Assembly (NCBI GenBank): GCA_000092065.1
Contig: CP000584.1
Strand: one strand, 5' to 3'
DNA: 64,000 bases
Source of the DNA: Ostreococcus lucimarinus
Lineage: Eukaryota
Numbering within the stretch: the first letter of the stretch is position 1; each line of letters opens with the position of its first letter. Positions 17,095 to 64,000 of this stretch are shown piece by piece. Both the position numbers and the translations under genes were made by a program. Under the pieces are notes generated by a model. It saw only the letters and a program-made list of their open reading frames with translations. It was not told where the DNA came from and searched no databases.

Positions 17095-17592
17095 TCAAGC
17101 CGCGAGCGCCGACAACGTCGGCGACACCGCGACGATTTCGCACGCGCACGCCCGCTCCTGCGACTCGTCCATGTACCCCGTCAAACTCAACGCGCTCCAC
17201 AACTTCCTACGATTCTCGTGCGCCACCTTCACCACGAACGTCCCCGCGAACGCCTCCCCCGCGCCCGCGCGCTCGCCGCCGACGAATTCCACCTCGAACC
17301 CGCCGTCGATCGCCCCGTGCGCCCGTCGCACCGCCGCGCGCACCATCGACTCCAAGCCCGCGCGCGACCACTTCCACGTCGCGTCTCGCGTGATCCTGCG
17401 CGTCGTTCGCGCGCGCGTCGTCGTCGTCAGTCTTCCAGTCTTCGTCCTCCCGCGCGCCTCGCGAGCGCCGACGCGTCCGTTCGCCGTCGCGCGCGCGCCT
17501 CGCCTCGCCTCGCCGACGCACAGTCGTATCCTCACGTACGCCCACCGCGCGCGCGGGAGCTCGAACGTGCGCTGCGCGACGTCGCTATCCAT
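17095..17592 (-). CDS. Hypothetical protein (conserved-looking C-terminal region only)
   Basis: Only the 3' third of ORF 17095..18228 looks protein-like (MDSDVAQRTFELPRARWAYVRIRL...GGFEVEFVGGERAGAGEAFAGTFVVKVAHENRRKLWSALSLTGYMDES). The remainder is R/A-rich read-through overlapping the + gene. Confidence 0.3.
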   Translation of the reverse strand: MDSDVAQRTFELPRARWAYVRIRLCVGEARRGARATANGRVGAREARGRTKTGRLTTTTRARTTRRITRDATWKWSRAGLESMVRAAVRRAHGAIDGGFEVEFVGGERAGAGEAFAGTFVVKVAHENRRKLWSALSLTGYMDESQERACACEIVAVSPTLSALAA

Positions 17593-17620
17593 CGCGCGCG
17601 CTCGCGTGACGCCGCACTCC

Positions 17621-48437: not shown

Positions 48438-48540
48438 CGACATTAAGCATCTAATACAGCATCTAATACACCACAACCGGTGATCACTAACGCGCGACTA
48501 AGCATCTAATACACCACAACTGGTGATCACTAACGCGCGC
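48438..48540. repeat. About 50-bp AT-rich direct repeat (2 copies)
   Basis: agcatctaatacaccacaaccggtgatcactaacgcgcga... is followed by ...agcatctaatacaccacaactggtgatcactaacgcgcgc. A partial third copy (catctaatacagcatctaatac) lies just upstream. The repeat sits between the DMT start and the cyclophilin stop. Confidence 0.8.
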
Positions 48541-49463
48541 GTCGGTTTGATCCACGCCGCCTTGGCCTTTCCCGCCCGCGAATCGCCTACGAGGTTGGCC
48601 AACGCGTTATACGCTCGCGCCGTCTCGCTCGGCTTGAATGTTTTTTCATTCGAAAGCCGCTGCACGACGTCCAAACCTTGTTCGACGCGACCAAAAACGA
48701 TGTTTTTGTTGTCGAGCGACGGTACCGGCGCTGGACCAGTCGTAATGAGAAATTGAGCCGTCGTTCCGTATTCGCCATCCTTCGCCGCTGACTCGAGCGC
48801 CAGACTCACCGTGCCCGGCCTAAAGTGCCGTCCCTCGAACGCGGACGCGCGCGTGACGTCGCCGTTACTAAACCTCTCCCCGCTCAGCGCCGAAACCTGC
48901 CCCAGTCTCGGACTCCCGCTCTTACCTCCGACGACGTACCCGTTGCCTTTGTCGATTTTATGAAACACCGTCCCCGCCAGCGTCGGCGTCGACGCCGCGT
49001 TCGAGCACAGCGCGAGAAAATTCCGCACCGTATCCGGCGCGGCGTCGCCGTACAATCCGACGACGATCCTCCCGAACGGTTCCGGCGTCGCGCACAGCGC
49101 GCCGCCGTCGTCGCCGAGCGCGCGCGCCGCGTTCGCCGCGCCCTCGCACGCGCCCACGTCCAGGTACACCCTCGCCGTGACGTTCGCCGTCGCGTCCATC
49201 GCGCGCGCGCGCGGCGTCATCACCGCCGCCGCGCACGCGCCGACGAGCGTCGCGCGCCGTCCCGTCGTCGCGTCGTCGTCGTCGTCGTCGTCGTCGTTCG
49301 TTTTCCCGTTTTCCAGCCGCGCGCGCCGCGCCGCCGCGCGCGCCGTCCCTCGCGCCGCGCGCGCGTCGCGTCCGACCGCGCGCGCGCTTCCCGCGTCGCG
49401 TCCGACCGCGCGCGCGCTTCCCGCGTCGCGCGCCGTCGCCGCCGCGACGCCGCGCGACGCCAT
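48498..49463 (-). CDS. Divergent cyclophilin-type peptidyl-prolyl isomerase with a twin-arginine lumenal targeting signal (thylakoid-lumen cyclophilin)
   Basis: The cyclophilin-like domain is GRIVVGLYGDAAPDTVRNFLALCSN...GTVFHKIDKGNGYVVGG...FGRVEQGLDVVQRL. The N-terminus is MASRGVAAATARDAGSARAVGRDAGSARAVGRDA... (tandem repeat), followed by an acidic run and then TTGRRATLVGACAAAVMTPRARA (RR, hydrophobic stretch, AxA). The upstream part of ORF 48498..50009 is trimmed. Confidence 0.7.
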   Translation of the reverse strand: MASRGVAAATARDAGSARAVGRDAGSARAVGRDARAARGTARAAARRARLENGKTNDDDDDDDDATTGRRATLVGACAAAVMTPRARAMDATANVTARVYLDVGACEGAANAARALGDDGGALCATPEPFGRIVVGLYGDAAPDTVRNFLALCSNAASTPTLAGTVFHKIDKGNGYVVGGKSGSPRLGQVSALSGERFSNGDVTRASAFEGRHFRPGTVSLALESAAKDGEYGTTAQFLITTGPAPVPSLDNKNIVFGRVEQGLDVVQRLSNEKTFKPSETARAYNALANLVGDSRAGKAKAAWIKPTRALVITSCGVLDA

Positions 49464-49487
49464 CGCGCGCGACACTGCGGCGCGCGC

Positions 49488-50459
49488 ATGCGCTGCATCG
49501 CGTCCGCGTCGCCGTCGGACGCGCGCGTCGTCGGTCGCGTGAAGCGCATCCACGCCTACGCGCTCAAGGGCGCGCGCTCGACGACGCTCGACGCCGCGGT
49601 CGTGCGTCCCGGCGGCGGCGTCCCCGACGACCGCGCGTTCGCGCTGCTGCGCGCGGAGCACGCCGAGCGCTGGCGACGCGACGGCGCGCGCGACGTCCTG
49701 CGCGCGGGCGAGGGCAAAGACCCGGGACATCACTCGAACAAGCACCTGTTTCACCAGCTCATCACGGACGGCGAGCTGGCGCGCGTGCGGGGACGCGCGT
49801 TCGGCGCGCGCGGCTTGGCGGTGGAGTGCGCGGCGAGCGGGAGGACGCTGGCGACGTGCGCGGACGCGGCGATAGAGAGCGAGCGAGCGAAGATCGAAGC
49901 GTTTTTCGGGACGCTGCTGAAGGGCGCGCGCGGGGCGCCGACGCTGACGCGGGCGGATGGGTGCTCGTTCGCGAACGTCGGCGGACGGCCGGGCGAACAC
50001 ACGCTGCACGTGAACACGACGGCGTCGGTGAGAGAGGCGTACGAGCGAACGTCGTCGTGGGAGCGAACGGGAGAGACGATGGAGGATTTCGCGCGTCGAT
50101 TTCGACCGAATCTCGTCGTCGAGGACGCGGGCGACGGCGCGTTGAAACCTTTCGACGAGTTCGCGTGGTGCGGTCGAGACGTTCGCTTCGGCGAAGTCGT
50201 CGTTCGCGTCGACGAACCGACGATTCGATGTCCGAGCACGCGCGTCCGATACGACGAATCCGGCGACGCCGGCGCGAATATCGACGCCGGCGCCCGTCCC
50301 GACGTCGACATTCGCGCCGCGTTTCCCGCGCTCGAGGCGTCCATATTCGGACGCGACCCCGTCGCGCTCGCCGACCGAGGCTCGTATTTCGGCGTGTACG
50401 CGCGAGTCGTCGTCGGCGGCGTCATTCGCGTCGGCGACGACGTCGCGTTGTTGCCGTGA
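49488..50459 (+). CDS. MOSC-domain protein (mARC/Mo-cofactor sulfurase C-terminal domain family)
   Basis: RVKRIHAYALKGARSTTLDAAVVRPGGGVPDDRAFALL is the MOSC N-terminal beta-barrel. ...TLLKGARGAPTLTRADGCSFANVGGRPGEHTLHVNTTASV...DFRFRPNLVVEDAG...YFGVYARVVVGGVIRVGDDVALLP is the MOSC domain with its conserved Cys. ATG at about 49488. The ORF-table start 48825 is read-through across the cyclophilin gene. Confidence 0.7.
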   Translation: MRCIASASPSDARVVGRVKRIHAYALKGARSTTLDAAVVRPGGGVPDDRAFALLRAEHAERWRRDGARDVLRAGEGKDPGHHSNKHLFHQLITDGELARVRGRAFGARGLAVECAASGRTLATCADAAIESERAKIEAFFGTLLKGARGAPTLTRADGCSFANVGGRPGEHTLHVNTTASVREAYERTSSWERTGETMEDFARRFRPNLVVEDAGDGALKPFDEFAWCGRDVRFGEVVVRVDEPTIRCPSTRVRYDESGDAGANIDAGARPDVDIRAAFPALEASIFGRDPVALADRGSYFGVYARVVVGGVIRVGDDVALLP

Positions 50460-50628
50460 CGTTCATCGCGTCGAGTCTCCTGGAAGTCTCGCCCGTCGAG
50501 TCTCGCCCGTCCGGCGAACCGGGAGTCGCGGCGTCGACCGCTCGGGAGCGCCCGGCGGGAGTGCCCAGTGACGACGCGCGATTCGGTGTCGATCTGAATC
50601 GGCGTCACAAACCCGCGCGGCGACGCTC

Positions 50629-51915
50629 GTGACCATGCTGAGCCACGCCATCGCGTTCAGTAACAACAAAGGAGGGTCCGGGAAGACGTTCATGGCGTTT
50701 CAGATCGCGTGCGAGGCCGCGAGGGCGCGGCCGGAGTCGAAAGTGTGCGTCATCGATTTCTCGCTGTACAGCGACATTAGCGCTTTGATGCTCGGCGGAA
50801 GCGCGCGCGAGGGGATCGGTGCGCCCATGCGCGGTCTGCAGACGTGCGTGGACATCACGGAGGCGGATAATCGCGCGGAAGGGCTGGTGCGCGCGCTGGA
50901 GGTGGCGGCGCAGGCGAGAGGGGAAGGGGACGAAGCGAGACGCGGCGAAAACGGCGGACGCGCGGGGCAGAGGAGCGTGTTCGGAACGTGGTTCTCGCGC
51001 GCGGGGAGCTCGGCGCAGTTGAAACACGAACCGCGAACGGATGTGGATTTGACGGATTTCATGATTCGTCCGCACGACGTGAACGAGGAAGTGCCGAAGA
51101 ACTTGTATCTGGTCGCCGGCGCCGGCACGGTGAGTTGGAATAGCGAGACGACGGCGATGGCGACGGATGATGAGATGGAGATTCCTTTGTGGGCGCGCAC
51201 GGGAGATGAGTGGGTTGGCGCTGGAGAAGTGTTTCGCGACGCCGTGCAGGCGTTGCCCGAGGCCTTTGACGCTATTTTTGTCGACACCGATCACTTGGCC
51301 GCGTGCGTGTTGACCAAGCTCGCGTTCGCCGCGATGGATTCCATCGTGATTCCTCTGAGTTACAACGACATGGATTTCAACCGCCTGTTCGCTGATATCA
51401 CCGGTAATGGATTGTTCACCGATGTTTTGCGGACGATGGACGAGCAAGGGCAGCTCCGAGCGCGCGTGAAGAAGTTTATGTTTACGCGCGTCGGGAGCAC
51501 GGCGAACGCTCCGCACAAGTCTCCGGGCGGCATCGCCTCGCCGTTCACTCCGACGAAAACGTCGACGGCTCAGATGGACGATATGGCGAGACAAATCTGG
51601 AGCGCGTGCGACCAGCCGCTGTACAAGGCGTTATTTGCAAACTTGGACGCTCTCGAAGCCGAGGGCGGGAACGTCGTGCAGTCCTTCATGACTGAATACT
51701 TTGGTATGTTCAAGCTCGTTCCAGAACTCGCCTCCCTGATCTCGACCATGAACGGTATCCCAGTGTGCGGCATGACCTCCAAGTCCTACACCGCCGCTAA
51801 TGGTCTGACTGGCTCCACCGGCTCGGCGGTTTTGAACAGCTTGAAGGCTGAGCTCGCGGCGAGCACGCAAACCATCTTGGACGCGCGATACAACGCCGCG
51901 ATTTCCTCCTCGTAA
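50629..51915 (+). CDS. ParA/MinD-class (SIMIBI) P-loop ATPase with deviant Walker A, atypical for a eukaryotic nuclear gene
   Basis: MTMLSHAIAFSNNKGGSGKTFMAFQIACEAA is the deviant Walker A KGGxGKT at the extreme N-terminus. ...KVCVIDFSLYSD is Walker A'-like. ...AFDAIFVDTDHLAAC is Walker B (hhhhD). ...DSIVIPLSYNDMDFNRL is followed by a 150-aa C-terminal extension with no recognisable domain. Confidence 0.6.
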   Translation: MTMLSHAIAFSNNKGGSGKTFMAFQIACEAARARPESKVCVIDFSLYSDISALMLGGSAREGIGAPMRGLQTCVDITEADNRAEGLVRALEVAAQARGEGDEARRGENGGRAGQRSVFGTWFSRAGSSAQLKHEPRTDVDLTDFMIRPHDVNEEVPKNLYLVAGAGTVSWNSETTAMATDDEMEIPLWARTGDEWVGAGEVFRDAVQALPEAFDAIFVDTDHLAACVLTKLAFAAMDSIVIPLSYNDMDFNRLFADITGNGLFTDVLRTMDEQGQLRARVKKFMFTRVGSTANAPHKSPGGIASPFTPTKTSTAQMDDMARQIWSACDQPLYKALFANLDALEAEGGNVVQSFMTEYFGMFKLVPELASLISTMNGIPVCGMTSKSYTAANGLTGSTGSAVLNSLKAELAASTQTILDARYNAAISSS

Positions 51916-52092
51916 TCCGAGCGGACGACGCAACCGTGAAGAATAAACACGCATAAACGAAAGTAGCCCGCGCGCCGCCGTACAGTCGGCGCGACTAGCG
52001 AACCATTGTAATCCACCAATTCCTGCATCGACCAGCCGCCGCGTCGTCGAGACGCGCCGCCCGCACACTTCGCCTGGCGCGCCGGTTCTTTC

Positions 52093-52824
52093 ATGCGAGT
52101 CAAGCGCGCGCGCAAGGTGCGAAAGTACCTGCGCTACTACCGCTCCGCGCACGGTTTTCGCGAGCCGTACAAGGTGATTTGCGACGGAAACTTCATCGCC
52201 GCCTGCGAAAAGCTCAACCTCGGCGACGCCAAAGACGTCGTCGCCAAGTACTTGGGCTCCAACGCGAAGGACGTCAAGGTGTTCACGACGCGATGCGTGC
52301 AAGAGGAGCTGCGAAACATGGGCCCGGAGTACAAGGGGGCGTCGATGCAGACGAAGAAGTTGCACCTGGTGGGCGGCGGACCGGCGCCGGGAGAGGCGAC
52401 GGCGGCGGCGTCCATCGTCGACGCGTGCGGGGCGAAGAACGAGGAACGATTCGTGGTGTGCACGCAAGACGATACATTGAAGGAGAAGTTGCGCGAGTGC
52501 GCGGGGGCGGTGCCGATTGTGTTCGCGCACACGAGTGGGTTGCAGATGGAGCCGCCGCCTGACGCGACGGCTGGGGGATTGACGTCGCAGCAGGAAGAGG
52601 TGCTGGGATTGAGCGCGGAGGAGCTGCGCGCGCTCGGGGTGGATGAACGCGAAGTGCGCGATGTGTACAAGGTTCGTACGAACGTCAAGTTCAAGAAGAA
52701 GTCGGGTGGGAAGAATCCGTTGAGTTGTTTGAAGAAGAAGCAAAAGGCGGCGCCGACGCCGACGCCGACGCAGGGTGGGGAGAAAAAGAAACGAGCTCGA
52801 CGCAAGAAAAAGAATAGCGAATGA
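52093..52824 (+). CDS. UTP23: rRNA-processing protein UTP23 (PIN-domain, Fcf1/Utp23 family)
   Basis: MRVKRARKVRKYLRYYRSAHGFREPYKVICDGNFIAAC... aligns with human UTP23 MKQKRAKSYRKQLLVYSHTFKFREPYQVLVDNQLVLEC. There is a PIN-like core and a Lys-rich C-terminal tail. Confidence 0.85.
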   Translation: MRVKRARKVRKYLRYYRSAHGFREPYKVICDGNFIAACEKLNLGDAKDVVAKYLGSNAKDVKVFTTRCVQEELRNMGPEYKGASMQTKKLHLVGGGPAPGEATAAASIVDACGAKNEERFVVCTQDDTLKEKLRECAGAVPIVFAHTSGLQMEPPPDATAGGLTSQQEEVLGLSAEELRALGVDEREVRDVYKVRTNVKFKKKSGGKNPLSCLKKKQKAAPTPTPTQGGEKKKRARRKKKNSE

Positions 52825-52923
52825 TTCTCGCGAGTAGCAATCGCGTGGGATGAATGGGTAGTGTGTATATTACGAGAACTAAAACATGTTTGATCCTCCA
52901 CGAACGCGAAAATCATTTCGCTA

Positions 52924-53970
52924 TTAATCCGCATCCATGTCGGCCGGACCCTTGCCACTTTCGATCGTTGCTTTCGATTCCGTGATCGCCGCGCGCAGTT
53001 CTTCAAACATCTCCAACGCCGCTTCGTCGCCCCCGCGTTGACGCACTATCTCTTCGCCCTGTTCCAAGTGTTCCAACGCGACGTCAAACTCGAGCGCGCC
53101 GTGATGCGCGTACGCGAGCATGTACCAAACGTCAACGTTGTCGTCACGCTCGCGAAGAAGTTCACAGAGAATGTCGATAGCAATCTCGGTCGTGGTGTCC
53201 AGTTCAAGTAACAGCTTGGCGGTCTCGAACCTAAACTCAAAAGATACGTTGAACTCGTGTTGAAACTCTTCGGCGCCGTTTTCTTCGTCCTCGTCCCGAT
53301 GCATCGCCCCTTGACGCCACATCTGTATGGATTCCTTCAAAATCTTCAGCGCTTCGTCGGTTTTTCCTTGTTCGTTTCTCAAGCTCGCTAACAGCTGCAA
53401 AGGCTCCGCCGAGACCGGATCGCTCGCTTTCGCGCGATTTATCAACTCCTCCACCTGAGCGCTCGTCTCCGCGTCCATCTCATCAGCCGTCCCGAGAATT
53501 TGCTCCGCCAGCGCACAACACGCCGAAGCGTGCGCACCTTGCGCGTCTTCATCACCCTTGTGCGCCTGTGCCTCTAATATCGCCAACCCTTGTCTCGTAC
53601 ACTTCGTCGCCGCCTCGCCGTCGTCCAGCAACTGCCCCAGATACATAAACTTTTCGTACCCTTCCGTCGGCGACAGCATCGCCGCTCGTTTCAGCGCCGC
53701 GATCGCCTCTTCTTGCGTTCCAAACTCCGCGAGCGTCATCGCCAGCGTCTCCGCCAGCGACGCATCATTCGGATGTTTCTTCGCCTCGGCGCGCAGCGTC
53801 GCGAGGCCCTCGTCGACGCGACCGTCCTCGATCGCCGCGTACGCCCCCTCGATCGCGCCCTCGATCGCGACGACGCGCGACGTCGTCGCCCCCCTCGGCG
53901 GTCCCGATTTCGCCTGTTTCGCCACTCCCGGCTTCGCCGCGCGCCGTCTCCCGCCTTGGCGCGCGCCCAT
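52924..53970 (-). CDS. Acidic TPR-like helical-repeat protein (possible ribosomal-protein chaperone, Acl4-like)
   Basis: About 348 aa from the ATG at about 53968-53970 (MGARQGGRRR...). TPR-like Ala/Leu-rich repeats are present (AYAAIEDGRVDEGLATLRAE..., KFMYLGQLLDDGEAATKCTRQGLAIL...) plus a very acidic C-terminal third. The upstream part of the ORF is trimmed. Confidence 0.4.
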   Translation of the reverse strand: MGARQGGRRRAAKPGVAKQAKSGPPRGATTSRVVAIEGAIEGAYAAIEDGRVDEGLATLRAEAKKHPNDASLAETLAMTLAEFGTQEEAIAALKRAAMLSPTEGYEKFMYLGQLLDDGEAATKCTRQGLAILEAQAHKGDEDAQGAHASACCALAEQILGTADEMDAETSAQVEELINRAKASDPVSAEPLQLLASLRNEQGKTDEALKILKESIQMWRQGAMHRDEDEENGAEEFQHEFNVSFEFRFETAKLLLELDTTTEIAIDILCELLRERDDNVDVWYMLAYAHHGALEFDVALEHLEQGEEIVRQRGGDEAALEMFEELRAAITESKATIESGKGPADMDAD

Positions 53971-54649
53971 GGTCGCGGTCGGAGCAATGGAACTCCGAAT
54001 TCGATTTCGACTTCGCGTCGCCTCGCGCGCGTTCGACGGCGCCCCGCGCGCCGCCGCTCGACCCGCGCGCGACGCGCGCGCGCGCTCGACGCTCGCTCGC
54101 GCGCGACCGCGCGCGTGCGTGCGAGACGCGGTGCGACGCGCAATGCCGCCGACGCCGAGTGGCGGCGGCAGAATGACGCTCGCCGGCGTCGCGACCGCGC
54201 CGCGCGCGCTCGCGGACACGCGACGGGCGACGATGGCGAAGACGATCGTCGGCGCGCTCGCGCCGCTCGTCGCGGCGCGCGCGCGCGCGAGCGACGGCGT
54301 CGTGATCGTGGAAGAAACCGTCGGTCGCGGCGTCGAGGTGCTCGCCGGCGTCGACGTCGTCAAGGTGAATTACACCGTCGCGCTCGCGTCGAGCAAGGCG
54401 AGGGTCGACTCGGCAAAGTTTTTCGTCTTCGGCGTCGGCGCCGGAGAGGTGGTCGAAGGATTCGACGCGATCGTGGGCGGGGACGGGGCGACGCCGCCGA
54501 TGCGCGTCGGCGGCGCGCGAAGAGCGGTGGTGCCGGCGGCGCTGGCGTACGGCGATCGCGGCGCGGGGTGCGATAAGACGGGAAATGCGTGTTCGATTCC
54601 GCCAGGGGAAGATTTAGAGTTCACCGTGGAGCTTTTAGAGGTCAAGTGA
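53969..54649 (+). CDS. FKBP-type peptidyl-prolyl isomerase with a bipartite transit peptide (thylakoid-lumen FKBP13-like)
   Basis: The FKBP domain is GVDVVKVNYTVALASSKARVDSAKFFVFGVGAGEVVEGFDAIVGGDGATPPMRVGGARRAVVPAALAYGDRGAG...IPPGEDLEFTVELLEV. It is preceded by an R/A/S-rich stretch and DTRRATMAKTIVGALAPLVAARARA (RR Tat motif, hydrophobic stretch, AxA). The start is either 53969 (MVAVGAMELRI...) or 54143 (MPPTPSGGG). Confidence 0.75.
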   Translation: MVAVGAMELRIRFRLRVASRAFDGAPRAAARPARDARARSTLARARPRACVRDAVRRAMPPTPSGGGRMTLAGVATAPRALADTRRATMAKTIVGALAPLVAARARASDGVVIVEETVGRGVEVLAGVDVVKVNYTVALASSKARVDSAKFFVFGVGAGEVVEGFDAIVGGDGATPPMRVGGARRAVVPAALAYGDRGAGCDKTGNACSIPPGEDLEFTVELLEVK

Positions 54650-54682
54650 CGCGGCGCGCGTTGCTTTGTAAATTACAGCGAC

Positions 54683-55945
54683 TCAACGCGCGGAGAGACT
54701 GGCGCACGCTTTTTGCGCGGCGTCGTCGAGGTCTTCGGCGGTGACGATGGTCATCCCGGACGACTTGAGAATCTTGTTCCCAGCCTCGACGTTCGTTCCC
54801 TCTAATCGCACGATGAGCGGGACTTTGAGATCGACTTGCTTGGCCGCGGCGACGATGCCGGCGGCGATGACGTCGCACTTCATGATGCCGCCGAAAATGT
54901 TCACCAAGATGGCTTGAACTTTCGGGTCGGCGGTCAAAATCTTGAAAGCTTCGACGACTTGCTCTTCGCTCGCGTTCCCGCCGACGTCGAGGAAATTCGC
55001 GGGCGAACCTCCGTAGAGTTGGATGATGTCCATGGTCGCCATGGCCAAACCCGCTCCGTTCACCATGCATCCGATGTTGCCGTCCAATCCGATGTAGTTC
55101 AAGTCGAATTTGCTCGCCTGCACCTCGCGCGGATCTTCCTGCGATGTATCGCGAAGGGAGAACAACTCGCTCTGTCGATATTCGGCGTTGTCGTCGAAGT
55201 TTAACTTGGCGTCCGCGGCGACGACGCGTCCGTCTTGATCCTCCGCGAGCGGATTCACCTCGATCATCGTGCAGTCGGTCTTGGAGAACGTTTCGTACAA
55301 CCCCATGAGTTGTTTCGCCGCCTCATCGACGTGTTTCAAAATTCCGAGTCGTTTCACCAGCTCGTCCGCCTGCGTCTTCGTCATCCCGCGCTCGATGTCC
55401 AACCGCATCTTAATAATCTTCTCCGGATGACTCTGCGCCAAGTCCTCGATCGACGTGCCGCCCTCCGCGCTCGCGATCACCAACGGTCCCGCGCTCGCCC
55501 TATCGAGCGTGATCGCGAAGTACATCTCCCGCGTCAGCGTCATTTTCTCCGCCACGTACACCACGTTCACCGGTTTCCCCGCCGGTCCGCTCTGTTTCGT
55601 CACCAACGTCCCCCCCAGCATCTTCGCCGCCGTCTCTCGCGCGCGCGTCTTCGCCACCGCGTGCACCCCTCCCTCGAACCCGCTCGCGAACGTCCCGAGT
55701 CCGCGCCCACCGGCGAGGATCTGCGACTTCACCACCACCTCGTCTCCGCGCATCGCGCGCGCGGCGTCGTCGACCTCGTCCAGCGTCCCGCACGCCGCGC
55801 CGATCGGCACGCGCACGCCAAACTTCTTCATGATTTCCGCGCCTTGGTACTCGTGCACGTGCAGCGCGCGCCGCGCGACGCGCGTCCACGGCGCGCGTTC
55901 GCGCGTCGCGCGTCGCGCGATCGCGATCGCGATCGCGCGCGACAT
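54683..55945 (-). CDS. Succinyl-CoA ligase (succinate-CoA synthetase) beta subunit, mitochondrial
   Basis: The 420-aa ORF begins with an ATP-grasp N-terminus ([22 protein letters not shown]...[14 protein letters not shown]) and is full-length colinear with SCS-beta, including the ..[31 protein letters not shown].. CoA-ligase motifs. A mitochondrial presequence is present. Confidence 0.95.
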
Positions 55946-56037
55946 CGTCGGCGCGCGAGGGAGTGACGCGCGATCGCGATCGCGCGGGCGTAACGACTTT
56001 GCACCGCGCGGGCGTCACTCGTCGACGCGCGCGCGCG

Positions 56038-56370
56038 ATGGCGACGTCGGCGCGCGACGTCGGCGCGAGGGACGACTCGCGAGACGCGGTGACGGCGTTC
56101 GCGAGCGCGGGGGCGGCGTCGCTCGCGAGCGCGGTGTATTTCTGGAGGAAACGCGCGACGATGCCTTTTAAAATCAGCGCCGCGGCGACGTGGTTGACCG
56201 CGGGACCGGCGGCGGTGCTGTGGTACGCCCCGTCGCGGGCGTCGCTGGAGCGGGAGTTGGCGGAGAAGGCGGCGGCGCGAGGGGCGAGCGCGCGCGAGGA
56301 CGCGATACGGCGCGACGGGGTCGCGGCGGCGAGGACGCTGTTGGAGAAGAGAGCGAGCGAGGAAAGCTAG
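56038..56370 (+). CDS. Possible small membrane protein (2 hydrophobic segments)
   Basis: It lies in the 430-bp gap between the SCS-beta start and the SET stop. MATSARDVGARDDSRDAVTAFASAGAASLASAVYFWRKRATMPFKISAAATWLTAGPAAVLWYAPSRASLERELAEKAAARG... I recognise no family. Confidence 0.25.
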   Translation: MATSARDVGARDDSRDAVTAFASAGAASLASAVYFWRKRATMPFKISAAATWLTAGPAAVLWYAPSRASLERELAEKAAARGASAREDAIRRDGVAAARTLLEKRASEES

Positions 56371-56376
56371 GAGAAA

Positions 56377-57369
56377 CTACGGGTGGGCTAGACTATTCGC
56401 GGCGCGCTGTTCGCCCGCCGCGCAGCGGGAACACGCGCAATCGAAGGCGTAGGAATTCGCGAGACGCGCGCGTCTGGCGTCGCGCGGAGAATCGGCGTCC
56501 ACGTACGTTATCGTGAGCTCTTCGCCCGGAGCGATTTCGCGAAGCGCGCGAATCGTGAGCGACGAATCGCCGTTTTCCCAGTGCGTGTGACAGTTGGGCG
56601 CGCACGAGTGATTGAGTAGGGACACGTACTTGTATACCGCCGAACCCGACGCGGTGCCTTGCGTGATGGCGTCCAATCCGGCGGATAGGACGTCCTTGAA
56701 ATCCGTCGTCGACGCCGCGGCGTCGACTGGAATTTCCACTCGGAACGAGTTTAAATGAAGACGGGACGTGATTCCGGCGTACCACGCGGGTGTGATGATA
56801 TCTTTCCCCGCGTCGCCGAATGCTCGTCGCAACACATCGCACTCTTCGAGCCACTGCGCGGGCGGATTGGTTTCCACGTCGTTCGCCGCGCACAACCATT
56901 CCAGCGTGCTCTTGTTCAACGCTCCGCTGGCGATCATAGACGCCGCTCTGGCGGTGATCAAAGGAAATTTTAAACCACCATTCTTTTCGCAGTACGCTTC
57001 GAGCTCGCTCAAATCCACCCCGTGCGTCTTTTCGAAATCGCCGTACGCCAATCGACGCGCGTCGGCGCACGATTCGCACGTCGCCCCGCCCGCGGACGCC
57101 CGCAAGCACCACTCGCACCTCGATCGCGCGTTGTCCATGGTTCTGTGCCACATCAACGGTCTTTCCCGCGATATGACCGCCTCGTTCGCCGCCAGCGCGC
57201 GCGCGGCGTACGCCCCTCGCCCCGAACGCGCCGTCGCGCCGATGAAGAACGCATCCTCGGCCCCGTACGTGGGCACGCTTTTCGACGCATCCGTGCGATG
57301 CGAGCGCGCGTCCGACCGCCGCGCGCGCGCGCGAGAAGCTCTCGCGCACCGCCGCGCCGCCGCGCGCAT
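56377..57369 (-). CDS. SET-domain protein-lysine methyltransferase (SMYD/LSMT-like with an inserted Cys-rich region)
   Basis: The SET core and post-SET read ...LLNHSCAPNCHTHWENGDSSLTIRALREIAPGEELTITYVD...AFDCACSRCA. A Cys-rich insert is CEWCLRASAGGATCESCA. Start is trimmed to MRAAARRCA at about 57369. Confidence 0.75.
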   Translation of the reverse strand: MRAAARRCARASRARARRSDARSHRTDASKSVPTYGAEDAFFIGATARSGRGAYAARALAANEAVISRERPLMWHRTMDNARSRCEWCLRASAGGATCESCADARRLAYGDFEKTHGVDLSELEAYCEKNGGLKFPLITARAASMIASGALNKSTLEWLCAANDVETNPPAQWLEECDVLRRAFGDAGKDIITPAWYAGITSRLHLNSFRVEIPVDAAASTTDFKDVLSAGLDAITQGTASGSAVYKYVSLLNHSCAPNCHTHWENGDSSLTIRALREIAPGEELTITYVDADSPRDARRARLANSYAFDCACSRCAAGEQRAANSLAHP

Positions 57370-57494
57370 GCGATCGCGCTCGGCGATGCGCTCTGCGGCG
57401 CCGCGCGCGCGAGCGTTGGATGACTGACAATGGATAACGCGGGAAACGAGACGGCACACCTCGACGCCGCGCTCGCGAGCGATCGCGCGCCGCG

Positions 57495-58712
57495 ATGACC
57501 GTCGCGCGAACGATGCAAACCTCGCCCGTCGTCCGCGCGCGCGCGACGACGCTCGCGAAGCGCTCGAACCGACGCGCGGCGACGAAAACGATCGTCACGC
57601 GCGCGAGCGCGGGCGACGCCTGGGGACCGTGCTCGTGCCACGGCGGCGCGCATCTCTCGAGCGAGCGCAAGGCTGAGCTCGAGGCGGTGTGCGCGGCGAT
57701 CGGACAGGCGGGGAAAGGGATCACGGCGTGCGATGAGGGACCGGGGACGATCGGGATGCGGTTCGAGAACGTGGGGGTGACGAATACGGAGGAAAACCGA
57801 CGGGCGTATCGACAAATGTTGTTCGAAACGCCCGGGGCGAACAAGTACCTGAGCGCGGCTATTTTGGACCCGGAAACGTTGTATCAAAAGAGCACGACGA
57901 ACGGGAAGCTGTTCCCGGAGGTGCTGAGCGAACTCGGCATCGTGCCGGGCGTGAAACCGCACTTGAAGGTGTACGCGCTGCCGGGCCAGAGCGGAGCGAC
58001 GGTGATGCAAGGCTTGGACTCGCTCGCGGTGCGATTGCAAGAGTACAAAGACGCCGGGTGCAAATTCGCCAAATGGCGCTCGCCGTTGGAGATTGACTTG
58101 GCCACCGGTCAGCCGAGCGAGCTCACCATCGAGACGAACATGAAGGATTTGGCGCGATACGCGTTGATTTGCCAAGACGTCGGCTTGGTGCCGATCGTGG
58201 AGCCGGATATTTCTCTCAAGGGTGATCACGACCTTGAGACCGCGGTTCGCGTGAACGTCAAGGTGCAGAGCATGCTGTTCAAGTCGATGCTCGACCACGG
58301 CGTGTACATGGAAGGCGCGCTCCTCAAGTCCAACATGGTGAACCCGGGTAAGAAGTGCAAGACCAACTACACCGTGGACGAACTCGCGATTGCGAATCTG
58401 CAAGTCTTCCGTCGATGCTTCCCGACCGCCATGGTGAGCGCCAACTTCTTGTCCGGCGGCCAATCGCTCGAAGACGCCGCTGCTCGCCTCGATGCCATCA
58501 ACAAGCACAAGTCCGCGAAGGATCCTTGGAACTTGTCTTTCTCCTGGTCTGCGGCGCTGCAGATGCCACTTTTCGAGCTTTGCCGAGGTAAGACTGAGCT
58601 TCCGCTCAAGGAGATGGGTGACTTGTACATCGCCGAATTGGAAAAGGCAGGCGCCGCCGCGCTCGGCCAATATTCGCGCAACGGCAAGGAGGGCGACCAC
58701 TCCGCCAAGTAA
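57495..58712 (+). CDS. FBA: Fructose-1,6-bisphosphate aldolase, class I, with a plastid transit peptide
   Basis: Full-length colinear with class I aldolases: ..LSAAILDPETL...IVPGVKPH.., the active-site region LVPIVEPDISLKGDHD (Schiff-base Lys), LSGGQS and a C-terminal Tyr-region. The N-terminal 40 aa are R/A/T-rich. Confidence 0.95.
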   Translation: MTVARTMQTSPVVRARATTLAKRSNRRAATKTIVTRASAGDAWGPCSCHGGAHLSSERKAELEAVCAAIGQAGKGITACDEGPGTIGMRFENVGVTNTEENRRAYRQMLFETPGANKYLSAAILDPETLYQKSTTNGKLFPEVLSELGIVPGVKPHLKVYALPGQSGATVMQGLDSLAVRLQEYKDAGCKFAKWRSPLEIDLATGQPSELTIETNMKDLARYALICQDVGLVPIVEPDISLKGDHDLETAVRVNVKVQSMLFKSMLDHGVYMEGALLKSNMVNPGKKCKTNYTVDELAIANLQVFRRCFPTAMVSANFLSGGQSLEDAAARLDAINKHKSAKDPWNLSFSWSAALQMPLFELCRGKTELPLKEMGDLYIAELEKAGAAALGQYSRNGKEGDHSAK

Positions 58713-58936
58713 GACGGCGTCGTACCACCACCGTCGCGAGTGATATCATATCATATCGAAAATCTCGCGTACGTCGCGCGTATCCCGTATTTTTAATACA
58801 CGCATCCTCTACCTGCCTCTCGCACCGTCGCTCGCTCGACCAAAAAGCGCATCCAGCAGCGACCATCTTTATCCACGTCATTCACGCGCGCGAGCGGTGC
58901 AGGTCTGCGATCCAATCGCCTAACACGCGTGTCGCA

Positions 58937-60184
58937 ATGTTCGCTCCGTCAATTTCGCGCGCGACGCCGTGTGTGGCGCTCGAGCGCGCCACGACAACGC
59001 GACGAACCACCCGCAGACGTCATCACAACACGCGCGCATCGACGCCCGATGACGCGTCCGCGCCGCCTGCGCTCGCGCGTTCGCGGCGCGACTTCGTTCG
59101 CGACGCTGTTTTACTGTCGACGCTCGGCGTTGGGCTCGCGGCGCGCGCGGATGCGGACGTCGACGTCGACGTCGCGCCCGCGGCGGCGACGAAGACGCCG
59201 TGCGTGCTGATAACCGGCGCCAATTCAGGCGTGGGGTACACGGCGGCGAAACAGATCGCCGCGCAGGGCAAGACAGTCGTTATCGCGTGCAGAAGCGTGC
59301 ATAAGGCTGAGCAAGCGGCTCGAGAGTTGAAGGAAGACGTCGGCGCGAACGCGAAGGTGGTGACGCTGCCAGTCGGTTTGGAACTCACGGATTTGGCGAG
59401 CGTGCGCGAGTATGCGCTCGCGTTTTTAGATCGTTCGGATTTGGCACTCGAGGCATTGGTGTGTAACGCCGGGATCATGGCGGCGCCGTTGGAGCGCACC
59501 ACGCAAGGACACGAATTGCACTTCGGTATTAACCATTTGGGACATTTTTTACTCGCCGACGCGCTGACGCCGGCGTTGAGAGAAACCAAAGGGCGCGTCG
59601 TGAGCGTATCGAGTTTGCTCTCGATGATTGGCGATTTCGCGTTGGACTTAGACGACTTAGATTGGAACAGACGCGAGTACGACCCTTGGTACGCGTACGG
59701 TGCGTCGAAGGCGCAAAACGTCTTGTTCGCCGACGAATTCGCTCGCCGCGAAGGCAAGAATGGTATCGTGGCGAACAGTTTGCACCCAGGAATCGTAACG
59801 ACCAATTTAGTCCGTTATTCGGTGCCCGACTTGGTGCAGTCCAAGCGTGATTTGGCGAAAGAGCGCGAGAGCTTCGCGGGGCGACTCGCGGCGAAAGCTG
59901 GCATTCGCAACCCGGACGAAGGCGGCCGGACGTCCGTCTGGCTCGCCACTTCCGATGCCGCGGCGAAAGAAACCGGCAAGTTCTTCATTGATCCTGGTTT
60001 GGTTTACCCGGGTGCCACGCGCGCGCAACTCGTCGAAGCTGGCGACTGGTTCTTGTCGAGTGGTACCGAGTTTTTGGCGCCGCAGCTCGGGATGCCGGAA
60101 AAATTGTTTGAATGGCGCACCGAGGCTAACGCGACCGCGCTCTGGTCAAAGTCGCAAGAGATGGTGAGCAAGTACACAATCTAG
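58937..60184 (+). CDS. Short-chain dehydrogenase/reductase (retinol-dehydrogenase/TIC32-like classical SDR) with an N-terminal twin-arginine-type signal
   Basis: CVLITGANSGVGYTAAKQIA (TGxxxGxG) ... NAG ... YAYGASKAQN (YxxxK) ... HPGIVTTNL. The N-terminus ...ALARSRRDFVRDAVLLSTLGVGLAARADA has an SRRxF motif, a hydrophobic stretch and AxA. Confidence 0.85.
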   Translation: MFAPSISRATPCVALERATTTRRTTRRRHHNTRASTPDDASAPPALARSRRDFVRDAVLLSTLGVGLAARADADVDVDVAPAAATKTPCVLITGANSGVGYTAAKQIAAQGKTVVIACRSVHKAEQAARELKEDVGANAKVVTLPVGLELTDLASVREYALAFLDRSDLALEALVCNAGIMAAPLERTTQGHELHFGINHLGHFLLADALTPALRETKGRVVSVSSLLSMIGDFALDLDDLDWNRREYDPWYAYGASKAQNVLFADEFARREGKNGIVANSLHPGIVTTNLVRYSVPDLVQSKRDLAKERESFAGRLAAKAGIRNPDEGGRTSVWLATSDAAAKETGKFFIDPGLVYPGATRAQLVEAGDWFLSSGTEFLAPQLGMPEKLFEWRTEANATALWSKSQEMVSKYTI

Positions 60185-60231
60185 TCTTCGCAATTAAATA
60201 CAGCACATTGACGCCGCGCGTCTACCAACGT

Positions 60232-61095
60232 TCACGAAGCGTCAACCACCGCTGGTAATTCTTCATCGCTCTCCAACTCAAACGTTTGCACGCTCGTGTC
60301 GTTGAACGCGCCTTGCACGGCAAACGTATCCCCCGGATCAAGCAGTGATGCGCGAGCGATGGACGACGCCGCGATGACGTGCGAGGGTCGCTTCTTCTCG
60401 GGATCCGCGCTCTTCGCTCGCCATCGATCGGCGTACGTCTCAAACGTGTTCCCGACGCACACTAAATCTCTCAACGCGCCCACGCTCCAACGCGCGCGAA
60501 CGACGTCTTCGTACAAGTGTCCCTCACAATGCGGCATGTAAAACACCACCAACTCATCCCTCGTCGACGAAGACGCCGACACGTACTCGTCGCACCTTTC
60601 CCGCGTCAACGTCTCGCATTCGTCGCCGTCGCCCGCGAGCACCTTTTCGTCCACAATCGTAAAGCACGGATCGTACGCCTTCAACCGCACGCGCGTCGCG
60701 TCGTCGTTCGACCGTTCGCGCAACCGCTCGCACGCGCGCGACGCGAACGCGAGCTGACACCTCGCCGCCGCGCTCGCGTCCGGCGACCCCAAACCCAACG
60801 CGAGCACCGTCACCGCCCGCCCGCGCGCGCGCGTCGCCGCCGCGTCGCGCACCGCGTCGACGGCGGCGTCCAGGCGCGACGCCGCGCGCACGTCCGCCGT
60901 CGCGCGTTCGACGCGCGTCGCGCACGCGGCGACGCGCGCGGCGAGTTCTTCCGCCGACAGCGCCGCTTCCTCGGCGCGCGCGTCGACGGCGCGGTTCGTC
61001 GCCGCCGCGCGCGCGGCGAGCGCGGCCTCGGCCCTGGCGCCGATCGCGCGCTTACCCGCGCGCGTCACCGGCGTCCAGGCGTCGTCGGGCGCCAT
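60232..61095 (-). CDS. SRR1-domain protein (SENSITIVITY TO RED LIGHT REDUCED 1 family)
   Basis: ...RAVTVLALGLGSPDASAAARCQLAFA...LKAYDPCFT..DEKVL...ELVVFYMPHCEGHLYEDVVRARWS has SRR1-family spacing and the FYMPHC motif. Start is probably MAPDDAW at about 61095. ORF 60232..61344 extends further upstream. Confidence 0.55.
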   Translation of the reverse strand: MAPDDAWTPVTRAGKRAIGARAEAALAARAAATNRAVDARAEEAALSAEELAARVAACATRVERATADVRAASRLDAAVDAVRDAAATRARGRAVTVLALGLGSPDASAAARCQLAFASRACERLRERSNDDATRVRLKAYDPCFTIVDEKVLAGDGDECETLTRERCDEYVSASSSTRDELVVFYMPHCEGHLYEDVVRARWSVGALRDLVCVGNTFETYADRWRAKSADPEKKRPSHVIAASSIARASLLDPGDTFAVQGAFNDTSVQTFELESDEELPAVVDAS

Positions 61096-61388
61096 CGCGC
61101 CGCCGCGACGTCGCGCGCGCGGTGTGACGTTTCGCGACGGCGCGCGCGCGTCGGCCGCGTCGCGCGACGGCGCGCCCGTAACTTTCGCGAGCTCGCGGCG
61201 CGCGACGCGCGCCGCTTGGCTTACGGGTACACTAAATACGCACTGTACCTGAAAGTGTCCGAACCCTAAATTTTTTTGTTTACGACGCGAACCGACGGTT
61301 TTGACGCGACACTCTCGAGGCGACGCTCGGGCGTTACGACGCACACGACGACGCGCGAGGACGACGACGACGACGACGCGCGAGGACG

Positions 61389-61977
61389 ATGCGGGTGCAC
61401 ATCAAGCCCAGGCTGCAGCAGGAGAAGTGGAGCCTGTACTGGAAGACGTCGATGTCCACGAGAACGTTCGCGCTCGACGAATTCGACTTGGAGGTGAAGC
61501 ACGACGAGACGACGGCGAAGGAGGTGAGGACGCGCGAAAACTTTGAAATGCGGCATTCGATGACGTTTCACGCGCGCAGGTGAAGGCGAGAGTGGCGGAG
61601 TTCATCGGGCTCCCGCCCGTGGAGACGTTGCATCGATTGGAAGAGTTCGTCGAGCCTTGGGAGTTGATGTGCGCGCGAGACGACGCGACGGCGACGGCGA
61701 AGACGCGACTCCGTCGATAGTCTCGCGAAACGTGACTGACTGCGTCGTGAATTGACCTGTGTTTCCGATTTAAAACAGTATGTATAACGGCCGCGAGCTC
61801 GATGACGGCAAAACGCTCGCCGCGTGCGGCGTTCCGGCCGAAGACGGCGTGAGCGTCGTCGTCGTACGCAAGCAGCTCGTCGCCGAAGGTTGGAAGCTAC
61901 GATTTGAAGATAACGAAGACTCGGACACGGAAGACGACGATTTTTAAGCCATCGTAACGACGCGCGCGGATGTAACG
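61389..61977 (+). CDS. ELOB: Elongin B-like ubiquitin-fold protein; multi-exon (at least 2 introns)
   Basis: Exon 1 is MRVHIK...TFALDEFDLEVKHDETTAKE. A 56-nt GTGAGG...CGCAG intron follows. Exon 2 is VKARVAEFIGLPPVETLHRL.. Another intron ends at the acceptor ttccgatttaaaacag. The last exon is (M)YNGRELDDGKTLAACGVPAEDGVSVVVVRK...EDNEDSDTEDDDF-stop. Compare elongin B ..[40 protein letters not shown]. Exact exon 2/3 junctions are unresolved. Confidence 0.6.
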
Positions 61978-62002
61978 TAACGTGATCATGAGAAGCGTGC
62001 GA

Positions 62003-63229
62003 TTACATTGCGGGTTCCTCCGCGTCTTGCGTCTCGGGCGCCGATTTCGTGAACTCGGCCTCGAACGCCATGACTTGTGATTCCGCCGCTTGCACGGCTT
62101 CGCGGTCCATGAGCGCCAAGAATTCGTCCAACTTCCCGATCGCGCTCTTGCTCGCCTTGCTCGAAAACTTGGCGTACTCGGCGGCTTTGCCGCCTCCGAC
62201 GGCGCCCATGTTCTCGAAATACTTCGAGTAGTTGACCTTTTCCATGTACTCCAAGAAATCGAACGCGATCTCGCGCGCCTTTTGCTCTTTACTCCCGCTC
62301 AAGTACGCCGCGGCTTTGAATAGATTATCCTTCACGTTGTTCGGCGGTCCCACGACGCGACTCACCGTCGAGTTCAACTCGTCCCACGCGCCGTCCTCCG
62401 CCAACGTCGCCGCCCTGCGCAGCAACTCCCGACTCCGCACCACGGGCACCAAATAAAAGAACAACGGTTTCACCGGCTCCGGGCTCTCGATCGAGATCTG
62501 ACTCAGCCCCACGAACGCCGCCGTCAGCGCCGCGCCGACGATCGCTCGTCGCCGCACCGTCTTCTCCTCCTCCTCCGTCATCCCAGCCTCACCGACCCCA
62601 CCCGCCTCGCTCGGCTGTTCGCGCACCAAGAACTCCATTCCATCTTTCAACCACGCGTCGCCCTCGCTCCTCGTTCCGAACAGCGTCTCTCGCTTTCCGA
62701 CGCCGTCCACGCGCGCCTTGCCCGTCGTCCCGCGCGGCGTCTCGCGCGCCAGCTCGTCCACCGTCTTCACCGTCGCCGCGCCGCCGCTCTTCGCCTCCAG
62801 CGCCGCGCGCAGGCGCTCGCGATCCTCCTCCGCGCGTTTCAGCCGCTCGACGACGTCCGCGAGCGACGCCTCGCTCAGCGGCGCGTCGTCGCCGTCGTCG
62901 TCGCGCGACGTCGACGCGCGTCGCGATCGCCGCGCGTCGCCTCGTCGCGCGCGTCGCCTCGTCGCCGCGCGGACGCGCGACGACGCGCCGCGCGTCGTCG
63001 TCGTCGTCGCGCGCGCGCGCATGGCGTCGCGTCGCGTCGCGTCGCGGCGTCGCGCGTCGCCGTCTCGCGCGTCGTCACTTCGCGCGTCGATGCGACGCGC
63101 GGCGTCGACGCTTCGCTTCGCGGCGCGACGCGAGGCCTCGAGCGCGAGCGCGCGAAGGGTCGTCTCGGGATCGGCGTCGCGCGCGCGCGTCGGGACGGCG
63201 CGTCGCGCGCGCGCGCGCGCGGCGAGCAT
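62003..63229 (-). CDS. Thylakoid-lumen protein with a Tat signal and a PsbQ-like helical C-terminal domain (assignment tentative)
   Basis: ...EEKTVRRRAIVGAALTAAFVGLSQISIESP has an RR motif and a hydrophobic stretch. It is followed by LFFYLVPVVRSRELLRRAATLAEDGAWDELNSTV..NVKDNLFKAAAYLSGSKEQKAREIAFDFLEYMEKVNYSKYFEN... (a 4-helix PsbQ-like feel). A long R/D-rich, coiled-coil N-terminal region precedes it. The start Met is uncertain (MLAARARARR at about 63226, or internal). Confidence 0.45.
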   Translation of the reverse strand: MLAARARARRAVPTRARDADPETTLRALALEASRRAAKRSVDAARRIDARSDDARDGDARRRDATRRDAMRARATTTTTRGASSRVRAATRRRARRGDARRSRRASTSRDDDGDDAPLSEASLADVVERLKRAEEDRERLRAALEAKSGGAATVKTVDELARETPRGTTGKARVDGVGKRETLFGTRSEGDAWLKDGMEFLVREQPSEAGGVGEAGMTEEEEKTVRRRAIVGAALTAAFVGLSQISIESPEPVKPLFFYLVPVVRSRELLRRAATLAEDGAWDELNSTVSRVVGPPNNVKDNLFKAAAYLSGSKEQKAREIAFDFLEYMEKVNYSKYFENMGAVGGGKAAEYAKFSSKASKSAIGKLDEFLALMDREAVQAAESQVMAFEAEFTKSAPETQDAEEPAM

Positions 63230-64000
63230 GCGCGCGCGCGTCGACGGCGGCGGCGGCGGCGAACGCGTCGCGGACGCGCGCGGCGAGGAGACGCGCGGCG
63301 AGGGCGCGAGCGCGAGCGAGGGCGGTAAAAAGCAAAAGCGCGACCCGGCGGCGTCGCTGGGCGTGACGGGGATGCGGAACTTTACGCTGAAGCACGGCGC
63401 GCTGCTCATGACGGAGGCGAGCGCGTTCGCGGATTTGAACCTGCAGGAGGCGAGTAAAAAGGTGAGAGGGGTGCGCGTGCGTCAGCACGTGAACCCGCTG
63501 ACGAAGAGGTTTCAAACGCAGGCGCCGGCGCCGGCGTGGAGGGAGGTGTATAGGGACGCGGGGAAGCCGTTGACGATCGACGTGGGGTGCGCGGGCGGGC
63601 GGTTCGATTTGTTGTACGCGAAGCGGAATCCGGATAAGAACGTGCTGGGGTTGGACATCCGCGAACCGCTCGTCGAACGAGGGTTATCGTGGGGAGAGGC
63701 GTCGGGGGTGGTGGATAACGTGCACTTCGCGACGTGTAACGCGACGGTGTCCATCGGGGAGTGGATCAAGAGTTATCACGAGACGAGCGGCGCGACGGTG
63801 GACTTGGTGACCATTTTACACCCGGATCCGCACTTTAAGACGAAGCACAAGAAGCGTCGAATCGTGCAGGCGACGATGGTTCGGCAGCTGGCGAGGGAGA
63901 TGCGCCCCGGTGCGCGCGTGTACTTGCAATCGGATGTGGAAGAGCTCACCGAGGACATGCGCGAGAAATTCGAGCGCTTTTCCGACGGGTGCTTCGATTT
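63225..64000 (+). CDS. METTL1: tRNA (guanine46-N7)-methyltransferase (TrmB/Trm8/METTL1), 5' part; continues beyond the window end
   Basis: ...VRVRQHVNPLTKRFQTQAPAPAWREVYRDAGKPLTIDVGCAGGRFDLLYAKRNPDKNVLGLDIREPLVERG...ILHPDPHFKTKHKKRRIVQATMVRQL... has the TrmB signature motifs (HVNPL, IDIGCGxG, FPDPHFK). There is a Lys/Gly-rich N-terminal extension from the ATG at about 63225. No stop occurs before position 64000, so it is absent from the ORF table. Confidence 0.8.

Follow-up and report, generated by a model that had tools for sequence, protein, structure and literature searches.

In a 64,000-nucleotide stretch of nuclear DNA of Ostreococcus lucimarinus CCE9901 (the window, part of a 930,724-bp chromosome), several gene pairs lie head to head with their start codons close together. 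A first-pass annotation, made from open reading frames (ORFs), had placed both starts of two such pairs (TPR/FKBP and PsbQ-like/TrmB) within one palindrome each, and those of two others (cyclophilin/MOSC and Pop5/DUF1997) some 25 and 28 bp apart, leaving two alternatives: extreme bidirectional compaction with extensively overlapping transcripts, or partners that use a downstream methionine. Here, we found that each alternative is right for a part of the pairs, the downstream methionine for the palindrome pairs and real compaction for the pairs separated by 24 and 28 bp. The whole pattern is very probably the usual compaction of Ostreococcus genomes, distorted by ORFs that were called too long. 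For each gene of the two tight pairs, the start codon is backed either by the N-termini of orthologues or by the lack of any other usable ATG.

The window has a G+C content of about 63%, the genome about 64%, and CG runs are abundant. At high G+C (near 80% in the spacers) stop codons are rare, thus reading frames remain open through the intergenic regions. A C at position -1 is common among true start codons, and since an ATG preceded by C makes the sequence CATG, it always brings an ATG on the opposite strand with it. When the most upstream in-frame ATG is chosen, a gene then seems to start within the start codon of its neighbour, as was the case for FKBP and the PsbQ-like gene.

In order to fix the start codons, we compared the window with ten natural O. 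lucimarinus haplotypes (L006–L015, 99.4–99.8% identical, Illumina-type contigs), a sister lineage (L021 and L022, MOSC 81% identical), O. tauri (L004 and L023) and another Ostreococcus clade (L005). The Pop5/DUF1997 junction was followed across many lineages in L016–L020 and 77 metagenome loci. Gene order is kept throughout the compared loci. Gene models were compared with NCBI proteins by exact protein look-up, and domain labels were checked with Pfam, which matched cyclophilin (Pro_isomerase), MOSC, TPR, FKBP_C, TrmB (Methyltransf_4), Rpp14/Pop5 and DUF1997; thus, the labels of the first-pass annotation stood with the exception of 'PsbQ-like'. A close relative, L003 (ENA ERZ10646539 contig_20844), has frameshifts not only in the FKBP extension but within conserved genes too; since this assembly is error-prone, it was set aside for indel arguments and L006–L015 together with L022 were used instead. 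Frameshifts within the conserved FKBP, TPR, SRR1 and cyclophilin genes occur in some public Ostreococcus metagenome or long-read contigs (L003, L005, L013), therefore indel arguments should rest on short-read assemblies only. A GC3-GC2 coding score tried for mapping genes and starts failed to separate frames in (CG)-rich regions and was not taken as evidence.

All the ATGs named in the first-pass annotation are present, with its coordinates off by 1–2 nt. The palindrome of the TPR/FKBP pair, CCATGG, occupies 53967–53972 and contains a plus-strand ATG at 53969 and a minus-strand ATG at 53970. The TPR start at 53970 is sound: O. tauri, L005 and L022 share the N-terminus MG.RQ, and no in-frame ATG lies further upstream. 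The FKBP start proposed at 53969 did not survive the comparison. In all ten haplotypes an additional CG at 54072 shifts the frame, which reaches a stop after 69 codons, and in L022 the upstream region carries indels of +1, -2 and -2, the frame equivalent to 53969 stopping after 68 codons. Position 54143, which had been mentioned as a possible FKBP start, is indeed where the NCBI model XP_001417346.1 (168 aa) begins; however, its equivalent is out of frame in L022, where only the equivalent of 54173 remains, and 54143 is a possible start in O. lucimarinus only. From 54173, the protein has 16 residues before the twin arginine, as in O. tauri, whose N-terminus MTPVAARASSTPRAMPRR aligns with MTLAGVATAPRALADTRR. 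The twin-arginine translocation (Tat)-type signal of FKBP (TRRATMAKTIVGALAPLVAARARA; twin arginine, hydrophobic stretch and AxA) is conserved in orthologues, and those 16 residues answer the remark of the first-pass annotation that lumenal proteins need transit peptides. With FKBP starting at 54173, the gap to the TPR ATG is 202 bp; the equivalent spacer measures about 230 bp in L005 and 317–360 bp in O. tauri.

Two features of this spacer were also recorded. The (CG)n tract at 54068–54082 carries the 2-bp length polymorphism. Between 53985 and 54030 there is an A+T-richer core, AATGGAACTCCGAATTCGATTTCGACTTCG, which is identical in L022, and at the same place in O. tauri (L004:9790–9930) three copies of GCGCGCCTTTGGAATTTTCATCGACCG are found. 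It is a possible promoter core.

The second palindrome, GCATGC at 63226–63231, provides a plus-strand ATG at 63228 and a minus-strand ATG at 63229, the latter having been proposed as the PsbQ-like start. The equivalent frame ends after 51 codons in eight of the ten haplotypes and in L003; in L009 there is an assembly gap in this region. The population alignment shows no variation until the minus-strand ATG at 63022, and many indels that are not multiples of three follow from 63023 to 63085. The only ATG available to the PsbQ-like gene in O. tauri (L004:18596) is closely preceded by a stop and lies at an equal distance from the conserved motif DDD...LSE(A/S)SL. Since the upstream frame is broken, the variable patch begins at 63023 and the O. 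tauri N-terminus has the same length, the PsbQ-like protein should be read from 63022, with a length of 339 aa in comparison to 192 aa in the NCBI model. The family of this gene is another matter: the protein has no Pfam match and shows no Pfam PsbQ even at E<=10, and its best match among solved structures, CyanoQ Sll1638, is sub-threshold (E 0.3–0.42).

The TrmB gene has in-frame ATGs at 63228, 63090 and 63021, and its start is either 63090 (383 aa) or 63228 (337 aa), with the former slightly favoured. It is preferred because the variable patch ends just before 63090, because this ATG has an in-frame counterpart at 18682 in O. tauri, and because MRRAASTLRFAARRE... appears to be targeting-peptide-like and MRARVDGGGGGERVAD... 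acidic. The O. tauri gene has in-frame ATGs at L004:18763 and 18682, which match the two O. lucimarinus candidates, and BLASTP with the long forms from both species gave no decision between 63090 and 63228. The sequence LGVTG(M/L)(R/K)N(F/Y) is conserved upstream of the annotated O. tauri TrmB start, therefore TrmB coding sequence reaches upstream of that start. The NCBI models, 237 aa in O. lucimarinus (XP_001417351.1) and 275 aa in O. tauri, look N-terminally truncated in both species. The spacer between the PsbQ-like gene and TrmB is thus 67 bp with the 63090 start or 205 bp with the 63228 start. Whichever of them applies, GCATGC holds a TrmB methionine codon and its minus-strand ATG is no start. 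The patch of about 65 bp at 63023–63085 is hypervariable, as it contains many small indels and replaced segments among ten haplotypes that are about 99.5% identical, with invariant flanks.

How often should such double starts arise by chance? Among the 697 plus-strand ATGs of the window, 170 (24%) are preceded by C, and five of eight verified start codons have the CATG context. The two spacers of about 200 bp have 77–80% G+C, and a given frame is open across them with a probability of 0.45–0.57; therefore, a partner-strand ATG is expected to be in frame and open about 15–19% of the time (roughly one case in six). The coincidence of palindromic double starts does not exceed this expectation. 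Further cases of the same kind are found at genuine starts: the plus-strand ATG at 63021, within the CATG of the PsbQ-like start at 63022, is also in frame with TrmB, and the DUF1997 start (CCATGC) brings a minus-strand ATG at 17622 that shares the Pop5 frame. The palindromes themselves carry no significance.

These results bear directly on the literal version of the first-pass proposal, in which the palindrome ATGs would be used on both strands, so that TPR/FKBP and PsbQ-like/TrmB would each share a start palindrome and their transcripts would overlap extensively. The reference sequence does keep both long frames open and in frame, and the extensions are rich in Arg and Ala and resemble transit peptides, although GC-rich non-coding DNA translates into such sequence anyway. 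The position 53969 is out of frame in every one of the other ten haplotypes, the 63229 frame terminates early in eight of them, neither extension is conserved in the sister lineage L022 or in O. tauri, and the coincidence is expected by chance. We thus consider shared start palindromes extremely improbable. The orthologue N-termini that the first-pass annotation had suggested comparing refute the extensions to 53969 and 63229 and leave the 24-bp and 28-bp spacings in place.

The starts of the Pop5/DUF1997 pair, at 17592 and 17621, are separated by exactly 28 nt with a (CG)4 tract at the beginning, as had been proposed, and NCBI uses both ATGs, i.e., this tight pair is already in the NCBI annotation. 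The Pop5 gene contains an intron of 126 nt at 17396–17521 (GTGCGT...CAG), whose splicing reproduces XP_001417578.1 exactly, and the N-terminus M..(D/A)..QRT.EL is conserved. In DUF1997, 31 residues precede the conserved DLxDVERD motif, in comparison to 29–35 in orthologues. The spacers in other Ostreococcus lineages are 26, 53, 69–72, 56, 64, 31 and 14 bp long, so that the pair is kept 14–72 bp apart in at least eight lineages, and in L033, L034, L036 and L041 there is only one possible ATG for each gene. It is a real and very tight head-to-head pair that extends across the genus. ARAGORN predicted a 95-nt tRNA-Ala(cgc) at 17545–17639 (minus strand), spanning both starts; Rfam gave no match there at E<=10 and the prediction is absent in 11 other lineages, and this call was rejected as a likely false positive in GC-rich sequence.

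The cyclophilin/MOSC pair is closer still, with 24 nt between ortholog-supported starts at 49463 and 49488, close to the first-pass estimate. The cyclophilin presequence consists, in order, of an Arg/Ala-rich part, a 30-nt tandem repeat, a poly-Asp stretch, and a signal made up of twin arginine, hydrophobic stretch and AxA. This Tat-type signal (GRRATLVGACAAAVMTPRARA) is conserved in orthologues, and it lies upstream of 49199 in four lineages: O. lucimarinus, L022, L005 and O. tauri (L004, from 6086). The NCBI model XP_001417591.1 (233 aa) starts at 49199 and has no signal, and the equivalent position in O. tauri does not encode Met. Between 49730 and the RR motif, 49463 is the sole in-frame ATG, and the sister lineage has the N-terminus MA(S)RG.AA as well. 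The tandem repeat and the poly-Asp tract, the latter encoded by (GTC)n, lie in the region 49260–49420, and this acidic stretch directly precedes the twin-arginine motif.

On the other strand, the MOSC_N domain begins at residue 15 of the MOSC protein, which has no further Met before residue 196. Homologues begin within a few residues of the MOSC start, and their N-termini can be aligned with residues 1–20. The 323-aa ORF is intact across a 41-member cluster, and full-length homologues exist. Since the cyclophilin has a single signal-bearing ATG (49463) and the MOSC N-terminus is matched by homologues, the 24-bp spacing stands. Exact look-up with the reference MOSC protein gave no match while a population allele was matched in the same collection, and the listed members of its 90% cluster include no NCBI model of O. 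lucimarinus; the gene appears to be unannotated in NCBI for O. lucimarinus. Among the relatives compared, only the sister lineage L021/L022 shares the arrangement, with a spacer of 38 bp. No MOSC gene was found beside cyclophilin in L004 and L005, and in O. tauri RCC4221 (L023) and another lineage (L024/L025) it is flanked by a VHS/GAT gene and an ANAPC3-type TPR gene. Judging from these differing locations, MOSC probably moved to its place beside the cyclophilin start within the O. lucimarinus lineage. The coordinates of all features are collected in Table 1.

Table 1. Head-to-head genes and spacers in the O. lucimarinus window (lengths of spacers are given between the two ATGs).
Feature	Coordinates	Strand	Length	Basis or remark
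Rpp14/Pop5-family gene	17095..17592	-	123 aa (spliced product)	start 17592; one intron
Pop5-DUF1997 spacer, CGCGCGCGCTCGCGTGACGCCGCACTCC	17593..17620	.	28 bp	direct sequence reading; begins with (CG)4 tract
DUF1997 gene	17621..18433	+	270 aa	equals XP_001417332.1; start inside CCATGC
Lumenal-type cyclophilin gene	48498..49463	-	321 aa	Pfam Pro_isomerase; start 49463
Cyclophilin-MOSC spacer, CGCGCGCGACACTGCGGCGCGCGC	49464..49487	.	24 bp	direct sequence reading
MOSC/YcbX-like gene	49488..50459	+	323 aa	start 49488 inside GCATGC; Pfam MOSC, MOSC_N
TPR protein gene	52924..53970	-	348 aa	equals XP_001417592.1; start 53970 inside CCATGG
TPR-FKBP intergenic (putative promoter) region	53971..54172	.	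202 bp	non-coding; holds the extension first ascribed to FKBP
Lumenal-type FKBP gene	54173..54649	+	158 aa	Pfam FKBP_C; conserved start 54173
Gene of unknown family ('PsbQ-like')	62003..63022	-	339 aa	start 63022 (MRARATTTTTRG...)
Hypervariable, indel-rich spacer	63023..63089	.		population alignment; directly upstream of 63022 start
TrmB gene (tRNA m7G46 methyltransferase type)	63090..64000, continues past window end	+		Pfam Methyltransf_4
PsbQ-like/TrmB spacer		.	67 or 205 bp	
SET/aldolase spacer		.	125 bp	
SRR1/small ubiquitin-like gene spacer		.	294 bp	

Several observations weigh against compaction combined with over-long ORF calls. The reference itself keeps the long FKBP frame from 53969 open, and the long PsbQ-like frame is open in the reference and L011 only; TrmB retains two candidate starts. 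For cyclophilin, in-frame length alleles of 312–332 aa occur in natural populations, but this is weak evidence, because the length changes fall within a (GTC)n tract and the 30-nt repeat, both of which would vary in multiples of three anyway. All three single-nucleotide polymorphisms in the cyclophilin presequence are non-synonymous, so that support for the 49463 start comes mainly from the conserved twin-arginine signal and from the absence of any alternative ATG. When the 5' coding regions of the partners were searched, no conserved promoter motif was found. Finally, the transcription start sites (TSSs) and any overlap of 5' ends are positions that we infer; our literature search found no TSS map and no cap analysis of gene expression (CAGE) map for Ostreococcus.

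The points concerning cyclophilin would also suit a more sceptical view, in which the 24-bp and 28-bp pairs are artefacts as well: cyclophilin would start at 49199, or MOSC would be dead or unexpressed, Pop5 and DUF1997 would have other starts, and no pair would be closer than about 100 bp. The non-synonymous polymorphisms, a 1-nt deletion in the cyclophilin presequence of the L013 assembly, the NCBI cyclophilin start and the lack of an NCBI MOSC model among the listed 90%-cluster members are in agreement with it. Against this, the Tat signal lies upstream of 49199 in all four lineages and the NCBI-equivalent Met is missing in O. tauri, MOSC is intact throughout its cluster, well conserved in the sister lineage and represented by full-length homologues, and the Pop5/DUF1997 starts are fixed by single ATGs in L033, L034, L036 and L041. 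That the tight pairs are artefacts seems to us quite improbable.

Since the tight pairs are best taken as real, the question arises of how they are transcribed. Two core promoters and two leaders for RNA polymerase II initiation cannot fit into 24–28 bp. Because the gap is too short, the initiation signals of each gene in a tight pair are expected in the 5' coding region of its partner, and we propose that they would lie within the first tens of bases of that region. In that case, the leaders of both mRNAs would be very short, or the mRNAs would overlap in antisense at their 5' ends, possibly within one shared nucleosome-free, (CG)n-rich region. The 5' ends of the tight pairs probably overlap. 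The 5' coding regions concerned all encode presequences or N-terminal extensions of low conservation, namely residues 1–67 of cyclophilin, 1–14 of MOSC, 1–13 of Pop5 and 1–31 of DUF1997.

Sequence elements in and around the spacers were also considered. Tracts of (CG)n or (GC)n with at least four repeats are found 30 times within 100 nt of 12 verified starts, in comparison to 6.5 expected by area (a 4.6-fold excess). The hexamer TGACGC/GCGTCA occurs in the Pop5-DUF1997 spacer of most lineages (17593–17620 in O. lucimarinus, with equivalents in L016, L020, L033, L034, L036 and L041), and two lineages keep CACTGCG shortly before the MOSC ATG. Neither of the candidate spacer motifs, TGACGC and CWCTGYGG, showed enrichment in the window (82 observed vs 96 expected, and 8 vs 6.4).

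From these elements one could argue that the tight spacers are bidirectional elements in their own right, working, for example, through a shared TGACGC bZIP-like site, a CACTGCGG site or a Z-DNA-forming (CG)n switch, and giving very short-leader or leaderless mRNAs in both directions with no signal in the partner's coding region. The recurrence of TGACGC and CACTGCG in the spacers, the accumulation of (CG)n tracts at starts and the peak of N6-methyladenine (6mA) at the ATG in O. tauri would fit such elements. However, neither motif is enriched in the window, the motif-bearing lineages are related by descent, and the spacer length ranges from 14 to 72 bp; moreover, the RNA polymerase II pre-initiation complex is established to span more than 24–28 bp. 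Thus, it is unlikely that the spacers alone direct transcription of both genes.

Returning to initiation within the partner gene, we can take the idea a step further, although tentatively and with less than even confidence: some divergent Ostreococcus pairs may have lost their intergenic promoter altogether, with the core promoter and TSS of each gene placed in the first 30–100 nt of the tolerant, presequence-coding sequence of its partner. Their mRNAs would then be obligatorily antisense-overlapping at the 5' ends, and this state could have been stable since before the divergence of the lineages in the case of Pop5/DUF1997 and have arisen anew with the relocation of MOSC.

Compaction with overlapping transcripts has already been described for Ostreococcus, and our findings are examples of it. 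In O. tauri, overlapping untranslated regions (UTRs) defeated the assembly of RNA sequencing (RNA-seq) data (PMC4378021), 2288 bidirectional transcript pairs were reported (PMC4035068), and at the ATG 5mCG is lowest and 6mA highest (bioRxiv 10.64898/2026.07.10.737489). In O. lucimarinus, 8.9% of expressed sequence tag (EST) clusters were flagged as potentially over-clustered owing to overlapping opposite-strand transcription units, with 26 confirmed paired loci, and the mean intergenic distance in the genus is below 200 bp (PMC2367439). Our model of initiation and overlap in the tight pairs fits these published statements on overlapping UTRs and opposite-strand units. It concerns the same genus and the same phenomenon, with divergent genes from tens to about 200 bp apart. 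However, the earlier reports are genome-wide, those based on ESTs dealing with overlapping 3' ends, whereas here specific head-to-head pairs with 24–28 bp between ATGs are described from sequence alone, and one of the two (Pop5/DUF1997) is conserved across the genus.

Comparable situations are known elsewhere. As far as the account cited in PMC2367439 (Williams et al. 2005) goes, overlapping expression in microsporidia and nucleomorphs likewise involves intergenic regions too short for promoters and terminators, with transcripts that start or end inside neighbouring genes; Ostreococcus, in contrast, is a free-living alga with a normal gene content. Bidirectional promoters of animals and plants also serve divergent pairs around one short, CpG-rich, nucleosome-depleted region; however, their TSSs are typically about 100–1000 bp apart and outside coding sequence, whereas here the ATGs themselves are separated by 24–28 bp. 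N-terminal over-extension of ORFs in high-GC genomes, in which stops are few, frames are open and an upstream ATG occurs by chance, fully explains both palindrome cases but fails to explain the 24-bp and 28-bp pairs.

Outside the pairs discussed above, the small ubiquitin-like gene next to SRR1 (MRVHIKPRLQQEKWSLYWK..., 61390–61945, plus strand) apparently has two introns in O. lucimarinus. In O. tauri its counterpart (L004:17128–17520) is an uninterrupted ORF of 130 aa, and the first exon shows 86% DNA identity between the two species.

For the annotation of O. lucimarinus, the outcome is a set of corrected or supported start positions for several genes: a cyclophilin with its lumen-targeting signal, a PsbQ-like protein of 339 rather than 192 aa, an FKBP of 158 aa, and a TrmB of 337 or 383 rather than 237 aa. 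ORF length is a misleading guide to start codons in GC-rich genomes, and natural haplotype indels obtained from metagenomes can fix them. The two verified pairs with 24–28 bp between their start codons are convenient loci for investigating how RNA polymerase II promoters function with almost no intergenic DNA.

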